The translations under genes were made by a program, and so were the position numbers. A model generated the notes under the pieces. The model did no database searches. It saw nothing but the letters and a program-made list of their open reading frames with translations, and had not been told where the DNA came from. A stretch of 64,000 nucleotides of DNA from an uncultured Holophaga sp. (GTDB taxonomy: Bacteria > Acidobacteriota > Holophagae > Holophagales > Holophagaceae): positions 576,001 through 640,000 of the forward strand of contig OY761614.1 in NCBI GenBank assembly GCA_963664825.1. The letters run 5' to 3'. The number at the start of each line of letters is the position of its first letter. The first letter of the stretch is position 1. Positions 46,495 to 53,791 of the stretch are shown in pieces.

Positions 46495-47955
46495 TCATTC
46501 CGGGGCTGGGGTCGGAGAGTTCGGCGCCGCAAGTAACTGATATAGTTCCAGGTAGCGCTTGGCGGAGGCACGCCAGCTGAAGTCCTGCTTCATGGCATTC
46601 TGCTGGACCCGGGCCCAATCCTTGGGGTGGCGGGCGTAGCGTTCGCAGGCGCGGCTGAGGGTCTCCCCCAGCGCCAGGGCCTCCACGGGGTCGAAGACGA
46701 ATCCCGTGGCTGTGCCCCCTGCGAGCGTAACCTCTGTCGTATCCACCACCGTATCGGCCAGGCCTCCCGTGCGGCGCACCACGGGCAGGGCCCCGTATCG
46801 AAGGGCATAGAGCTGGGTGAGGCCGCAGGGTTCGAAGCGGCTGGGCACCAGCAGGGCGTCGGCTCCGGCCAGGAAACGGTGGGCCAGGGCCTCGTCATAG
46901 CCGATCCGCACGGCCACCTGGCCCTGGTGGCGGCGGGCCGCAGCCTTGAAACCCTGTTCCAGCAGGGGATCCCCCGAACCGAGAAGAGCCAGCTGGGCCC
47001 CCAGGGAAACCAAGTGCTCGACATTGGCCAGCACCAGATCCAGGCCCTTCTGGGTGACGAGGCGGCTCAGCACGGCAAAGAGCGGGGCCCGCGCCTCCTC
47101 CGATAGATGCAGTTCCCGCTGGAGCAGGTTCTTGCAGATCTTCTTGCCCGAAGGATGGAGGGCATCGTAGTGCGAGGCCAGATGGGGGCTGGTGGAGGGA
47201 CTCCAGACCCGGCCATCGACGCCATTGAGGATCCCCACCAGATCCTGCCGACGGTGGGTGAGGAGCCCGTCCAGCCTCTCCCCGAAGGCAGGCTCCTGGA
47301 TCTCCTGGGCGTAGGTGGGGCTCACGGTGGTGATGCGATCGGCGAAGTGGAGCCCCCCCTTCAGGAAGCTGAGATCGCCGTAGAACTCCGCTCCTTCCAT
47401 CTGGAAGGCCTCCGGCGGCAGCCAGAGCCCTTCCAGAACCTCCCTGCCGTAGATGCCCTGGTAGGCCAGATTGTGGACCGTCATCACCGTGGCGGGGCGA
47501 TCCCCCCCCCACAGGGCCAGGTAGGCCGGAGCCAGGGCCGTCTGCCAATCGTGGCAGTGGAGGATGCGCGGCCTCCAGCCATGGCCATCGCCATGCTGGG
47601 CGAGCCAGGCGGCCCCAAAGGAGAGGGCGCCGAAGCGCAGGCAGCTATCGCCGGTCTCCTCGTAGGGTCCCCCGGGACGGTCGAAGAGGGAGGGCGCGTC
47701 CAACAGGTAGAGGGGCACACCCGATGGCGTCCGGGCCAGCAGGAAGCGCGCGGGCCCCGAGCCGAGAAGATCCTCCAGCCTCCCCACCGGCTCGGCCTCC
47801 GGGAAGGCCTGTTTCAGCGCGGGATAGGCCGGCAGGAGCATCCGGGCCCGCACGCCGATCGCCCGCTGGGCCTCAGGCAGGGCGGCCAGGACGTCGCCCA
47901 GGCCTCCCACCTTCACCCAGGGGTAGAGTTCCGAAGCCACATGGAGGACTCGCAT
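46495..47955 (-). CDS. glgA: Glycogen synthase
   Basis: KVGGLGDV, HCHDWQ, PSRFEPCGLTQ. Confidence 0.97.
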   Translation of the reverse strand: MRVLHVASELYPWVKVGGLGDVLAALPEAQRAIGVRARMLLPAYPALKQAFPEAEPVGRLEDLLGSGPARFLLARTPSGVPLYLLDAPSLFDRPGGPYEETGDSCLRFGALSFGAAWLAQHGDGHGWRPRILHCHDWQTALAPAYLALWGGDRPATVMTVHNLAYQGIYGREVLEGLWLPPEAFQMEGAEFYGDLSFLKGGLHFADRITTVSPTYAQEIQEPAFGERLDGLLTHRRQDLVGILNGVDGRVWSPSTSPHLASHYDALHPSGKKICKNLLQRELHLSEEARAPLFAVLSRLVTQKGLDLVLANVEHLVSLGAQLALLGSGDPLLEQGFKAAARRHQGQVAVRIGYDEALAHRFLAGADALLVPSRFEPCGLTQLYALRYGALPVVRRTGGLADTVVDTTEVTLAGGTATGFVFDPVEALALGETLSRACERYARHPKDWARVQQNAMKQDFSWRASAKRYLELYQLLAAPNSPTPAPE

Positions 47956-47960
47956 CGGAC

Positions 47961-49226
47961 CTAGGATACCAAGCGATCCAGCATGCGCTGGGAGACCAGG
48001 GTGATGCCGCTGGGCGTGCGGTAGAAGCGCTCCGCATCGGCCTTGGGATCATCTCCCACCACTAGGCCCGGAGGGATCTGGGTGCCCCGGGTAACCACCG
48101 CCCGCCGCAGCCGGGCATGGCCGCCAATATTGGCGTGGGGCAGCACCACTGTCTCCTGGATATGGGCATGGGAATGGACCCGCACCCGGGAGAAGAGGAG
48201 TGATTGATACACCGTGGCGCCGGACACGATGCAGCCGTCGCCGAGCACGCTGCTGATGGCCAGGCCATTCCGGTGGGGCCCGCTGTGGACGAACTTGGCG
48301 CCGGGCAGCTGCTCCTGATGAGTGAAGATCGGCCAATCGTCGTCGTAGAGGTTCAAGGCGGGATCCACGTAGGTGAGGTCCATATTGGCTTCCCAGTAGG
48401 CGTCCACGGTCCCCACATCCCGCCAGTAGGGCGGCTTGTCCAGATTGGGGATGCAGCTCTTCTCGAAGGAATGGGCGCATACCCTGGCCTTGTCCAGCAG
48501 ATAGGGGATCAGATCCCGGCCGAAATCATGGGTGGACAGCGGGTCCTCCGCATCCCGTATCAGTTCACGGAAGAGGAAGTCCGCCTTGAAGAGGTAGATG
48601 CCCATGGAGGCCAGGCAGACGCCGGGTTTTCCGGGAATGCAGGGAGGCTCTTCGGCCTTCTCCACGAAATCCACGATCCGCCCGGCCTCGTCCACCTGGG
48701 CCACGCCGAAGGCCTTGGCGTATTTCTGGGGCACTTCCAGGCAGGCCACGGTCAGATCCGCGTCCATCCGGAGGTGATCCTCCAGGAAGATCCGGTAGTC
48801 CATCTTGTAGATATGATCCCCCGCCAGGATCAGCACGTTTTCGGGGTCGTGGGCCCGGATATTGGGGATGTTCTGGTAGACGGCATCCGCCGTGCCGCTG
48901 TACCACACCTCCCGCTCGTTGTTCTGCTGGGCGGGAAGGGGATGGACGAACTCGTCCAGGATGGTGGAGAGGAAGGACCACCCGTACTGCAGATGCTCCA
49001 GCAGGGGATGGGAATTGTACTGGGTGAGCACCATGATCCGACGAAAGGCCGAATTCACGCAGTTCGACAGGGCGAAATCGATGATCCGATACTTGCCGCC
49101 GAAGTCGAGGCCGGGCTTGGACAGCTCTCGGGTGAGATCCATGAGCCTGGATCCCCTGCCTCCCGCCAGGATCACGGAGATCGTGCGCTTGGGAGCAAAG
49201 TAGATATCCCGTGCCGAAAGCTGCAT
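47961..49226 (-). CDS. glgC: Glucose-1-phosphate adenylyltransferase
   Basis: LAGGRGSRL, FGGKYRIIDF, GTADAV, GDHIYKMDY, YWRDVGT. Confidence 0.97.
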   Translation of the reverse strand: MQLSARDIYFAPKRTISVILAGGRGSRLMDLTRELSKPGLDFGGKYRIIDFALSNCVNSAFRRIMVLTQYNSHPLLEHLQYGWSFLSTILDEFVHPLPAQQNNEREVWYSGTADAVYQNIPNIRAHDPENVLILAGDHIYKMDYRIFLEDHLRMDADLTVACLEVPQKYAKAFGVAQVDEAGRIVDFVEKAEEPPCIPGKPGVCLASMGIYLFKADFLFRELIRDAEDPLSTHDFGRDLIPYLLDKARVCAHSFEKSCIPNLDKPPYWRDVGTVDAYWEANMDLTYVDPALNLYDDDWPIFTHQEQLPGAKFVHSGPHRNGLAISSVLGDGCIVSGATVYQSLLFSRVRVHSHAHIQETVVLPHANIGGHARLRRAVVTRGTQIPPGLVVGDDPKADAERFYRTPSGITLVSQRMLDRLVS

Positions 49227-49461
49227 GAACACTCCTAGCCGGGCCGTCGGCAGCCGCCAACAAACCTCCGGCCTTTCATACAAAAGTCATCGAGCAGGTC
49301 CATCCTGAACATTAATTTTCACATGCAGTTGCATAATTATTCATATCTTAGTCCCCACGAGATCCAGGAGGCCCCTGGAGACGAGCTCCCGCGCTCCTTT
49401 CGTCCGAAGCGTGGCCCCCGTCTGCCGGTAGGATGGACAGGTTCCTTCCTCTTGGATTTCC

Positions 49462-50592
49462 ATGCGCTTCCTCCATACCTCCGACTGGCACCTGGGCAAG
49501 ACCCTCTGCAATGCGAACCTGCTGGAGGACCAGGCGCACGCCCTGGAACAGGCCATCGCCATGATCAAGGACACCAAGCCCCAGGCCTTGGTCATCGCCG
49601 GGGACGTCTACGACCGCGCGGTGCCACCCAAGGAGGCCGTGGCGCTCCTGGACGAATTCCTGAGGCGGGTCGTGGGCGATCTCCGGGTGCCGGTCCTGAT
49701 GATCGCGGGAAACCATGACAGCCCCGAGCGCCTGGGCTTTGCCGCCGATTTCCTCGAGCCCCAGGGCCTTCACGTGGCGGGCCTCCTGGCTCCCGACCCC
49801 GCACCCGTGGTGATTGGCGAGGCCGCCTTCCACTTGATGCCCTACGCCGATCCCGCCGCCGCCCGGCACGCCTTCCAGGACGAGAACATCCGCACCCATC
49901 AGGATGTTCTCACGGCCCAACTCTCCCGGGCCTGGAGCCACCATCCCCAGAGCAAGCGCTTCATCGCCGTGAGCCATGCCTTCGTGGCTGGCGGTCTCTG
50001 TTCCGAATCCGAGCTGGGCCTGGATGTGGGTGGCAGCGGCGAAGTGGATCCCAGGCTCTTCGAACCCGCCGATTACACGGCCCTGGGCCATCTCCACCGC
50101 CCCCAGGACGCGGGATTCCCCCATGTCCGCTACGCGGGCAGCCTGCTCAAGTATTCCGCCTCCGAGGCCAGCCACCTGAAGGCCATCACCCTGGTGGAGC
50201 TGCCCACCCAGGGCAAGGCCCGCACCGAGCCCCTGCCCTTCACGCCCCGGCGGGATCTCCGCAAGCTCCGGGGCGCCTTCGAGGATCTGCTGCGGGAGCC
50301 CACGGAAAGCCGGGAGGACTACCTGTTCGTGGAACTCACCGACGGAGGCCCCGTCCTGGACGCCATGGCCCGCCTGCGACGGATCTATCCCAATATTCTG
50401 GGCATCCAGACGGGCTCCGAGCGCGCCTCCGAGGACCTCTCCCCCCTGCGCTCAGATCCCCGCAACCTCGACCCCGAGAGCCTCTTCCAGACCTTCATCC
50501 AGGAGAGCACGGGCCAGGAGCTCAACGAGGAGGAGATGGCCATCTTCCGCGAAGTGGCAGGAAAAGCGCTGCTGACAGGAGACCGGCCGTGA
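49462..50592 (+). CDS. sbcD: Nuclease SbcCD subunit D
   Basis: HTSDWHLG, AGDVYD, GNHD, LGHLH. Confidence 0.95.
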   Translation: MRFLHTSDWHLGKTLCNANLLEDQAHALEQAIAMIKDTKPQALVIAGDVYDRAVPPKEAVALLDEFLRRVVGDLRVPVLMIAGNHDSPERLGFAADFLEPQGLHVAGLLAPDPAPVVIGEAAFHLMPYADPAAARHAFQDENIRTHQDVLTAQLSRAWSHHPQSKRFIAVSHAFVAGGLCSESELGLDVGGSGEVDPRLFEPADYTALGHLHRPQDAGFPHVRYAGSLLKYSASEASHLKAITLVELPTQGKARTEPLPFTPRRDLRKLRGAFEDLLREPTESREDYLFVELTDGGPVLDAMARLRRIYPNILGIQTGSERASEDLSPLRSDPRNLDPESLFQTFIQESTGQELNEEEMAIFREVAGKALLTGDRP

Positions 50593-50741
50593 GCGCGAAG
50601 CAGGAGCAGAGCGCCACCGTGCGCAGCACGGCCCCGAAGGGGTGCCGCGCAGGGAGATGTCGCGTGAGCGCGAAGCAGGAGCGGAGCGCCACTTTGCCGA
50701 AGGCAAAGCCCGAAGGGCGCGGCACAGGATGTGCCGCGTGA
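50589..50741 (+). repeat. MIRU-like tandem intercistronic repeat (75+74 bp) bounded by GTGA, carrying a 50-codon mini-ORF
   Basis: GTGA at 50589, 50664 and 50738; first 29 nt of the two units 28/29 identical; GNA-triloop hairpins. Confidence 0.8.
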
Positions 50742-53700
50742 AGCCCCTCCGTCTCGTCCTCCAGGCCTTCGGCCCCTACGCGGGCCGCCAGGAACTGAAT
50801 TTCGCCGATCTCCAGGGCCAGGATTTCTTCCTCATCCATGGGCCCACGGGCGCAGGCAAGACCAGCATCCTGGATGGCCTCAGCTATGCCCTCTATGGGG
50901 AAACCAGCGGCGGCCTGCGGGAGGCCAGGGATATGCGCAGCCACTTCGCCGATCCCGCCCTGGAGACCCGGGTGCGCTTCGAGTTTCAGCTGGGGGACCA
51001 GATCTACCGCGTGGATCGCTGCCCGGAACAGATGGTCCCCAAACAGCGGGGCGGGGGCCTGAAGAAACAGAGCTACACCGCCAATCTGTGGGTCATGGAG
51101 GCGGGGGAGGCCACCCCCCTGGCCACGGAGAAACCCACGGCGGTCGATGCCCGGGTGATCGAGCTCATGGGCTTCAAGGCCAGCCAGTTCCGGCAGGTGG
51201 TGCTCCTGCCCCAGGGGCGCTTCCAGGAATTCATGCTGGCGGGTTCCACCGAGCGTCAGGCCATCCTCCAGGTGCTCTTCCAGACCGAGCGCTATGCCCG
51301 CATCACCCAGGCCCTCACCGACGAGGAGAAGGCCCTGAAGGAGGCCATGAGGGCCACCCTGGCCGAATCGCGGCAGCTGCTGGAACAGGTGGGAGTGGAA
51401 TCCGTGGAGGAGCTGCCCGGCCTCATCCGGGAGGCCGAGCACCGAGGGGCCCTACTCAAGCAGGAGCAGGAGAGCGTCATCGAAGCCGCCGCCGCCGTCG
51501 CGAGTGCGCTCCAGGAGGGCCTCCGCGCGGAGACCCTGGTCAAGGAGCAGGACGCGGCCATCGCCGAGCGGGCCGAACTCGGCGCCCGGACCCAGAGCAT
51601 GGACGTGCGCCGCACGGAATTGGAGCGCGCCCAGCGGACCGAATCCATCCTCCCGGCCGCCCGTCGCCTTCAGGAGGCCCAGGACCGCACCCGCGATCTG
51701 CGGGAGGAGGAAGGGCGCCTGGCCGAAATTTCCGAAGTCCAGGCCCAGACCCTCGCCACCTCCGAAGCACGGCTCACCCAAACCCTGGGACAGGAGATCC
51801 GGCGGGAGGAACTGCGCCACAGCATCGCCCGGCTCAAGGAGCTCGAGCCCAAGCTCGCGGCCCTGGAGGAATCCCGCAGGGAGGTCCGCAGTTCCGCCCT
51901 GGAGCGGGGACGCCTGGAGGACGAGGTTTCCGAGGGCAGGCGCCAGGGCGAACGCATGGGACAGGCCCTGGCCAAGCTCCAGGAGCAGCGCCAGGAACTT
52001 CAGGCCCAGGCCGACCAGGCCGATGCCCGGGAACACCTGCTCTATCTCGTCAAGAAGCAGCGGGGCCAGCGCGATGAGCTAGAGCGCTACTGGATGCAGG
52101 CCAAGGATGCCAAGGCGGCCCTCGAGGAAGCCGAGGCCACCCTCGCCTCCACCCGGGAGGAGCGAAGCGCCGCCCAAGAGGCCCTCCAGCACATCCTGGC
52201 CCGTCGCCAGGAGGCCCAGGCCGCTTCCCTGGCCCGCCATCTGGAGCCCGGAGCCCCCTGCCCCGTCTGCGGCAGCACCGAACACCCCATTCCCGCCCAG
52301 AGCGGGGCCGATCTGCCGGACGAAGATTCCGTCCACCTCGCCCAGGACCGCTTCGATCTCAGCGAAGCCTCCCTGTCCAGGGCCCAGGAGAACGCCCAGC
52401 AGCGCCACATCACCTACGAAGGGCTGCGCGCCCGCACCGACGGGCTCCTGGACGCCCTCGGAGACCTGGCCGAACAGCCCGCCGAAGTCTTCCAGGCCCA
52501 GGAGGCCGAGCGGCGTGCCGACCTGGAACGAAGCCGGAATGCCAGCACCCGGTTGCCCAGCCTGGAACTGGATGTGGCCGACGCCGAAGGGCGAAAGGCC
52601 ACTGCGGACCAGACTCTGGACGCGAGCCTGCTGCGACTGGATGAGCTGCGCACACGGGAGACGGAGGCCAAGGCCAAGGTCCGCTTCCTGGAGGAGAGCC
52701 TCCTCTCCGAACTCCGCGCCCCCGGGGCCCTCTCCACCCGGCGGGAGCAGGCCGAGCGTGAACTGGCCGAATCCGAACGGGAATTCCAGGAGTCCAGGGA
52801 CGCCCGGGACGCCGCCCAGGGCCAGTCCCACGAATCCAGGGCCCGGCTGGAGGCCCACCGGGAGCGCATGCGCGATGGGTTGGGCGAGATCAGCCGCTGC
52901 GAACTCGAACTGGACGAGGCTCTCGCCACCGCCCGCTTCCGGGATCGTTCGGACTTCGATCTGGCCAAGCGGCCCCAGGCAGACCAGGAAGCCATGGCCC
53001 AGGAACTGGAGAGCTTCGCCTCGGCCCTCCAATCGGCCGAGGACCGCCTCCGGCGGGCCCAGGAACAGGCCCGGGACATCGTGGCCCCGGATCTAGCCGC
53101 CCTCCGGGCCGCGGTGGAGGCCGCCCAGGCTCGGCTCTCCCGGGCGGGGGAGGAGCTGGGTCAGGCCCAGGGCCACCTCGAGAACCTGAGCAGGGTGAAG
53201 GGGATCCTGGAGGCCAAGGATACGGAAATCGCATCCATGGACCGCCGCTACCGCGTGCTGGGTCGGCTCGCCCGAGCCGCCAAGGGCGAAGAGGGTCCGC
53301 GCATCTCCTTCGAACGCTATGTCCAGGGCGCCATCTTGGACGAGGTGCTGATCTCGGCCAGCGAGCGGCTGCGCAAGATGAGCAAGCAACGCTACGCCCT
53401 GCGCCGGGCCCTGGGGGCCGGCGATCTCCGCAAGGCCGGGGGCCTCGATCTCGAAGTGACCGACACCCATACCGGACGGGCCCGGGCCGTGAGCACCCTC
53501 TCGGGCGGCGAGGGCTTCCTGGCCAGCCTGGCCCTGGCCCTGGGCCTATCGGATGTGGTCCAGCGCAATGCCGGCGGCATCCGTCTCGACACAGTCTTCA
53601 TCGACGAGGGCTTCGGCAGCCTGGACCAGGAATCCCTGGATCTGGCCCTGCGCACCCTGGAAGAACTCAAGCAGGGCGGGCGTCTCGTGGGGCTCATCTC

Positions 53701-53791
53701 CCACCTCGAGGAGGTCAAGGCCCGCATCCCCGCCCGCCTGGAAGTCATCCCCGGCCCCGGCGGCAGCCGCGCCGAATTCAAAGTGGGCTGA
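50738..53791 (+). CDS. sbcC: Nuclease SbcCD subunit C (Rad50-like ATPase)
   Basis: VKPLRLVLQAFGPY start, GPTGAGKT, CPVCGS zinc hook, LSGGE, FIDEGFG; the 50642 ORF start lies inside the repeat. Confidence 0.95.
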   Translation: MKPLRLVLQAFGPYAGRQELNFADLQGQDFFLIHGPTGAGKTSILDGLSYALYGETSGGLREARDMRSHFADPALETRVRFEFQLGDQIYRVDRCPEQMVPKQRGGGLKKQSYTANLWVMEAGEATPLATEKPTAVDARVIELMGFKASQFRQVVLLPQGRFQEFMLAGSTERQAILQVLFQTERYARITQALTDEEKALKEAMRATLAESRQLLEQVGVESVEELPGLIREAEHRGALLKQEQESVIEAAAAVASALQEGLRAETLVKEQDAAIAERAELGARTQSMDVRRTELERAQRTESILPAARRLQEAQDRTRDLREEEGRLAEISEVQAQTLATSEARLTQTLGQEIRREELRHSIARLKELEPKLAALEESRREVRSSALERGRLEDEVSEGRRQGERMGQALAKLQEQRQELQAQADQADAREHLLYLVKKQRGQRDELERYWMQAKDAKAALEEAEATLASTREERSAAQEALQHILARRQEAQAASLARHLEPGAPCPVCGSTEHPIPAQSGADLPDEDSVHLAQDRFDLSEASLSRAQENAQQRHITYEGLRARTDGLLDALGDLAEQPAEVFQAQEAERRADLERSRNASTRLPSLELDVADAEGRKATADQTLDASLLRLDELRTRETEAKAKVRFLEESLLSELRAPGALSTRREQAERELAESEREFQESRDARDAAQGQSHESRARLEAHRERMRDGLGEISRCELELDEALATARFRDRSDFDLAKRPQADQEAMAQELESFASALQSAEDRLRRAQEQARDIVAPDLAALRAAVEAAQARLSRAGEELGQAQGHLENLSRVKGILEAKDTEIASMDRRYRVLGRLARAAKGEEGPRISFERYVQGAILDEVLISASERLRKMSKQRYALRRALGAGDLRKAGGLDLEVTDTHTGRARAVSTLSGGEGFLASLALALGLSDVVQRNAGGIRLDTVFIDEGFGSLDQESLDLALRTLEELKQGGRLVGLISHLEEVKARIPARLEVIPGPGGSRAEFKVG

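Follow-up and report, generated by a model that had tools for sequence, protein, structure and literature searches.

MIRUs, short repeats of mycobacteria, sit at start codons and carry an open reading frame coupled with −4 spacing, as described in the MIRU passages of two reviews (PMC12548453, PMC3184786). They number 40–50 per genome (PMC3184786), and both tetranucleotide direct repeats and imperfect terminal inverted repeats are ascribed to them (PMC12548453, PMC3184786). In those passages, coupling-preserving insertion is given for mycobacterial MIRUs only, its benefit is called likely and the mover goes unnamed.

The Holophagaceae repeat described here appears to work like a MIRU, the likeness being one of design. 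Both are dispersed repeats of about 40–100 bp, the Holophagaceae unit measuring 74–75 bp with 16 units in the source genome and up to 32 in its relatives. Going by the same review passages, they also share the start-codon site, the −4 coupled frame, empty and filled sites, GC-rich internal inverted repeats, tandem variation and an unnamed mover. Unlike MIRUs, which are described with both repeat types, the Holophagaceae unit has end purines that match no better than chance and no visible terminal inverted repeat; the MIRU descriptions in those passages mention neither insertions in frame within coding sequence nor nested modules nor gene-tail duplications, all of which the Holophagaceae repeat shows. 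The family belongs to the Acidobacteriota, a phylum different from that of MIRUs, as the first-pass annotation had supposed. With a probability of about 0.7, we read the present locus, from its sequence and that of its relatives, as a tandem pair of this small, non-coding mobile repeat at an RTGA start codon, with a stop-free frame that runs onto a rebuilt start and likely passes ribosomes from sbcD to sbcC as they passed before insertion. The features of the locus are listed below; the window is the whole 64,000-nucleotide stretch analysed.

49462–50592, + strand: sbcD, 376 amino acids, matching NCBIfam TIGR00619 above its cut-off; its TGA lies within the first GTGA
50589–50663, + strand: unit 1, 75 bp, with a decayed last hairpin; 60.5 bits with the covariance model
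50589–50617, + strand: hairpin 1 of unit 1, its conserved left end; GNA-type triplets face each other and the loop is AGGA
50617–50642, + strand: two GNA-triloop hairpins of unit 1, read from the sequence
50651–50656, + strand: SD-like AGGGAG, 7 nt 5′ of the unit 2 GTG
50664–50737, + strand: unit 2, canonical 74 bp; 100 bits with the covariance model
50664–50692, + strand: hairpin 1 of unit 2, from folding and covariation
50692–50718, + strand: two GNA-triloop hairpins of unit 2, from folding
50718–50738, + strand: last hairpin of unit 2, with an SD-like AGGA in its loop and a stem that closes on the G of the sbcC start codon
50589–50741, + strand: relay mini-ORF of 50 codons, without a Pfam match, putatively translated
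50738–53791, + strand: sbcC, 1,017 amino acids from the GTG in the third GTGA, the name backed by NCBIfam

The first-pass annotation had described two tandem units between three GTGA words, and its description stands in detail. Because GTGA occurs at 50589, 50664 and 50738, the units are 75 and 74 bp long; the first GTGA contains the TGA of sbcD and the last the GTG of sbcC, and the 50-codon frame translates as quoted there. Unit 1 is a multiple of three, and its frame therefore continues into unit 2. SD-like motifs precede the next GTG by 7 nt (AGGGAG) and 8 nt (AGGA), and all five quoted hairpins are present. The best-conserved part, which that annotation overlooked, is the first hairpin, which spans 29 nt counted from each GTGA and contains an AGGA loop as well as two GNA triplets that face each other. 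A 19-mer occurs twice in the 64-kb window against 0.07 occurrences expected. Compared with shuffled sequences, unit 2 folds with z-scores of −4.4 as DNA and −3.7 as RNA; unit 1 alone, its last hairpin having decayed, folds no better than shuffles (−1.6 and −1.1). The sbcC frame is already open from a GTG at 50642; SbcC of relatives begins M/V-K/R-P-L, which places the start at 50738. Contigs of a public run show zero differences from the window across 50200–50694 and 50675–50828, a match that counts only against an assembly slip since the run may be the source sample itself. Two RNA runs contained 5–6% of the words. Divergently from sbcD, the minus strand carries glgC (NCBIfam) and then a glgA-like ORF (window 46495–49283), an ordinary arrangement.

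The units belong to a dispersed family, as had been predicted. In the source genome, searches with a covariance model derived from 52 units detect 14 of them at E 0.001 and, with the threshold at E 0.1, 16 units at 14 loci; BLAST with nhmmer recovers 13 copies with E < 0.01, the best match in a reversed-genome control having E 0.044. The model matches 43 of 60 Holophagaceae genomes (assigned to the family by their titles) with 1–32 copies each, and none of 95 genomes from other Acidobacteriota families; counting the genomes without a match, copy number in Holophagaceae runs from 0 to 32, and certain sites are common to several genera. A scan for an exact pattern across 185,579 species genomes, which favours well-kept copies since it demanded an intact left end, gives 74 loci. 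Most are labelled Holophagaceae, Geothrix, Holophaga, Mesoterricola or unranked Acidobacteriota, with five Solibacteraceae, two Deltaproteobacteria and no actinobacterial record among them. For two weak regions of one genome (G095; L243, L244), nhmmer gave no usable match. Viral contigs and phage records hold no unit, and seven weak partial matches in plasmids, at most 31% in coverage, were taken as chance.

The claim that structure is kept while sequence differs is borne out by compensatory changes, with two-sided changes at 15 of the 25 base pairs. In the consensus structure, 91.5% of cells are paired, versus 34–49% when partners are slid, a control that is lenient because the structure was drawn from the same sequences. 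The canonical 74-nt unit (2 modulo 3) opens at its left RTG, is stop-free in that frame, ends in an AGGAGG-type motif (in 44 of 55 units AGGAGG itself is found in the final loop) and closes on the RTGA of the gene. Neither the mini-ORF (Pfam) nor the unit (Rfam, best E 1.4, far from any gathering score) matches a catalogued family, and membership among Rfam structured RNAs fails accordingly. Our literature search, which covered the main text of openly available papers, found no published account of this repeat in Holophagaceae. We regard the family as real and apparently undescribed, the MIRU-type concept itself being already known.

At the sbcD/sbcC junction, both states are seen. A plain −4 RTGA overlap occurs in six relatives, one of the same genus, and one relative (L010) reads ccGTGAagccc, the very empty site that had been predicted. 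The junction is filled in five genomes, including the source, with gaps of 145, 187, 207, 465 and 472 nt that contain different nested repeats; in all five an unbroken chain of frames runs from the sbcD stop to the sbcC start, opening with TTG in the 187-nt gap. In an SbcC tree, the filled genomes all lie on one side of a branch with support 86/98. One insertion followed by remodelling is thus the simplest history, and the five filled sites are not five independent insertions. A close strain's contig from a public run carries a 12-nt in-frame deletion within unit 1. Copies also lie in frame within rnr and rlmN, where the 75-bp form adds residues and the orthologues in the genus are empty. At two loci (L003, L004), the sbcD/sbcC gap holds long imperfect tandem-inverted repeats with an open relay frame of 58 and 159 codons; long imperfect tandem-inverted repeats likewise fill gene junctions 3′ of guaA (L280–L301). 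These are presumably of the kind that flanks GxxExxY genes.

Across the family, the preferred target is the RTGA start codon. We sorted all model matches of six genomes, 76 arrays in total, by script and by eye: 26 form a stop-to-start relay, 22 sit at a start without a linked stop, 9 lie in frame within genes, 9 at duplicated gene tails and 10 at none of these. The first-pass expectation of a preference for stop–start overlaps thus stands for gene starts (48 of 76 arrays), but only 26 of those 48 tie to an upstream stop. A start target, and not an overlap, agrees with the wording on MIRUs in the relevant passage of PMC12548453. In the source genome, 9 of 14 loci are at starts, and by crude gene calls start codons make up about 1.8% of its RTGA words. 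Start-attached examples include atpF/atpH, a kinase/regulator pair and two efflux operons. Between the genes for ATP synthase b and delta, a 44-nt truncated unit (L180, G000:C1:1013114-1013161) has a 15-codon relay, and a 29-nt minimal form (L241:1088-1120), the first hairpin alone between two GTGA, still has a relay of 10 codons.

Frame preservation, the other part of that expectation, is nearly complete. Over all loci retrieved, 150 of 151 distinct start-attached arrays keep the relay, among them 62 of the 63 whose length is non-canonical; counted by distinct gene starts the figure is 92 of 93, all in genomes that are kin. Among 27 distinct segment lengths, 19 are 2 modulo 3, 7 are divisible by three and 1 is 1 modulo 3; this last, 205, is probably 131 + 74. 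Segments divisible by three fuse frames with the next unit, with the next gene or inside a gene. An A follows the start RTG in 150 of 151 arrays versus 147 of 439 SD-led starts genome-wide (33%). All 55 canonical units have an open relay frame, as against 43 and 51 of them for the other sense frames; the antisense frames are open in 50–54, so openness is partly a matter of GC content. The source genome has at least three further families of small hairpin repeats, which are present both on their own and nested in units by frame-keeping steps (G000:C1: 350091-350144, 553338-553404, 1875819-1876001, 2302716-2302941, 2826672-2826751 and 3443493-3443566), and one of the nesting families appears to land in GGAG (SD-like) loops.

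The ends of the unit bear on how it enters. RTGA stands at both ends, as in a MIRU-style tetranucleotide direct repeat. The left purine is the same as the right one in 38 of 71 units, near the 33 or so expected from the margins, although later mutation could blur such a match. In 49 of 55 units, the final purine, just 5′ of the right TGA, has its pairing partner within the unit; some right ends read TGC or TGT. Units also occur at duplicated gene tails that begin at NTG(A) inside a gene, the gene itself staying whole. The loci are as follows.

guaA tail: L033, L036, L037, L059, L075, L084, L274
uvrA tail: L215
htpX tail: L188
ArgZ-like gene tail: L062, L064
lepA tail: L013, L017, L191, L201

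Duplications of guaA (six distinct copies), uvrA, htpX, the ArgZ-like gene and an integrase gene are antisense, and the four of lepA are sense, with a displaced start of GTC, not GTG. At uvrA, a 348-bp block is present three times. A nuoD-like tail in the source genome and at L203 is similar by eye. Among the 18 duplication matches, 7 are tandem units or a unit-bounded repeat (L146, L063 three times, L052, L196 and L207) and stand outside the antisense count; L207 was placed in the tail class of the by-eye tally. At these junctions, the base preceding TGA is that of the target, whether A, T, C or G; at L042 the original site reads TGT and the junction TGA. There, an antisense unit lies right behind a tyrosine recombinase gene with a duplicated gene tail (L042:1-1367); we take this recombinase, by recognition, to resemble an integron integrase. 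The guaA end is reportedly an integrase-island hotspot in other bacteria. Inserts 3′ of guaA of about 7.7 kb (L302, G074:C81) and 1.5 kb (L303, G003:C4) end in a second guaA tail, like integrase islands.

Together the junctions suggest that there is no true 4-bp target duplication. We infer an element that would run from TGA to a purine, enter at N|TG without duplicating its target and at times carry flanking DNA with it. Two rivals bear on this junction model: palindrome self-correction after insertion could produce a paired final purine without selection or element-borne ends, and the tail duplications may be ordinary duplication scars.

The search for a mobiliser has been negative so far as it went. 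The first-pass annotation had suggested a RAYT- or IS200-like HUH transposase, and no such partner was found in the source genome, its relatives or the unit-bearing loci. The source genome has no Y1 transposase (PF01797) and no reverse transcriptase; its candidates are one IS110, one Y2 beside a tyrosine recombinase, three GxxExxY loci and two GIY-YIG, none with a unit in the locus examined. At G000:C1:830461-832816, an IS91-type Y2 transposase, a tyrosine recombinase and a GxxExxY gene stand together, with no unit nearby. Among 61 genomes that are kin, Y1 occurs in 10 of 44 repeat-bearing versus 3 of 17 repeat-free genomes (Fisher p 1.0) and Y2 in 13 of 44 versus 9 of 17 (p 0.14, in the wrong direction). 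Units are absent from 30 Y1 loci and from 50 loci with Y2, integrase, IS110, GxxExxY and GIY-YIG genes (12 of 14 integrase matches covered). In 294 unit-bearing loci, tblastn with 11 candidate mover proteins gave nothing, and Pfam searches of 110 of 194 clusters of flanking ORFs showed no transposase. GNA mini-hairpins are especially stable in DNA, and the GNA loops of the units are a hint of single-stranded DNA.

Known families of hairpin repeats fit only in part. As portrayed in the pertinent sections of PMC6006769 and PMC3733652, REP/REPIN–RAYT repeats and IS200/IS605 ends resemble the unit in being small hairpin repeats with a plausible single-stranded substrate and occasional coding insertions. 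The Holophagaceae alignment begins with RTGA and lacks a GTAG/CGTC tag at the hairpin foot; the unit has four hairpins rather than one, a start-codon target and a Y1 gene neither nearby nor co-occurring. Membership in REP/RAYT fails on the absent foot and on the lack of a Y1 transposase flanked by the repeat. For a non-autonomous element of IS200/IS605 type, the ends are compatible, but no guide tetranucleotide is evident by eye, the 14 source-genome loci show no leading/lagging strand bias (6 versus 8) and no autonomous partner was found. Rickettsia palindromic elements, as treated in part of PMC3733652, insert in frame in working genes, as the Holophagaceae units do in rnr, rlmN, an RND pump and uvrA; in Holophagaceae, however, such in-gene copies are a minority (9 of 76) and most of the niche is at start codons. 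Bacterial MITEs are likewise non-autonomous and dispersed, with empty sites; membership fails because the Holophagaceae ends are direct (RTGA...RTGA), pairing is local, and neither terminal inverted repeats nor a sign of true target duplication is seen.

In our preferred reading, an enzyme supplied in trans would copy a unit, folded as single-stranded DNA, to new sites. The unit likely enters at N|TGA and brings its own leading TGA and final purine, so that the RTGA at both ends probably does not stem from target duplication. Slippage or unequal exchange would then give tandem copies, further small repeats would nest within units, and selection would purge changes that disrupt the relay. Until a ribosome on the mini-ORF unfolds it, the last hairpin would mask the SD and the first base of the start codon. 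A ribosome relay through the mini-ORF is strongly implied by the conserved frames, and the peptide itself likely has no function of its own. Alternatively, the unit may restore independent downstream initiation through its own SD, the open frame being a by-product of fixed length and high GC. The AGGAGG loops fit this, as do the 22 of 48 start-attached arrays with no upstream stop to relay from, but an SD alone needs no frame, and the frame survives many different indels in the arrays of non-canonical length and even reaches 159 codons; moreover, the SD is buried in a stable hairpin whose stem reaches the start base, and we judge this account improbable. A domesticated regulatory RNA element or a gene for a functional peptide, to which covarying stems and the persistence of some sites across genera might point, is very hard to credit given the unrelated neighbours (ATP synthase, efflux, kinases, RNases), the varying copy number, the antisense and in-gene copies and the blank Rfam and Pfam searches.

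As to what moves the unit, an HUH enzyme of IS200/IS605, RAYT or IS91 type acting in trans by peel-and-paste would name the enzyme of the preferred reading and is not opposed to it. The unit has sub-terminal hairpins without terminal inverted repeats, a short fixed target and ends that look element-borne, and the gene-tail duplications begin at the NTG target, as expected from flank capture. A Y1 class 3 of Acidobacteria is described in PMC6006769 as flanked by hairpins with a CnGA foot, and the class 3 hairpins listed in that paper's supplements may bear on the mover. Against this stand the missing PF01797 gene, the failure of Y1 and Y2 to track the repeat, the empty candidate and unit-bearing loci and the guide that the eye does not find; we entertain it as a tentative candidate. 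Spread by host processes (templated insertion, template switching or excised-circle recombination) would need no dedicated enzyme, selection alone setting the surviving sites. It accords with the lack of any tracking mobiliser and with the absence of the repeat from viral contigs and phage records, but we consider it unlikely: both junctions fall exactly on NTG(A) at 93 gene starts, within genes and at tail duplications of six gene types, a precision that suggests sequence-specific cutting. A broader and rather doubtful proposal is a class of start-codon-targeted single-stranded DNA elements, of which MIRUs would be one branch. Its enzyme would lie outside the catalogued Y1 and Y2; its members would make no target duplication, would bring their own stop, SD and start, and by flank capture would leave a repaired gene and a displaced tail.

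For annotation, the units are a hazard: they give rise to spurious genes of 25 codons, to N termini that are falsely extended and to inserts of 25 residues within conserved proteins. Their tandem variation could serve strain typing. The Holophagaceae family is a large natural test of coupling-preserving insertion, and the survival of the relay through many indels in nearly every array argues, at the level of sequence, that keeping a −4 overlap pays even across 100–470 nt. The junctions also give clues to the cut site and, if a class of single-stranded DNA elements is indeed at work, they would define the cut site for a mobility of which our literature search gave no explanation.
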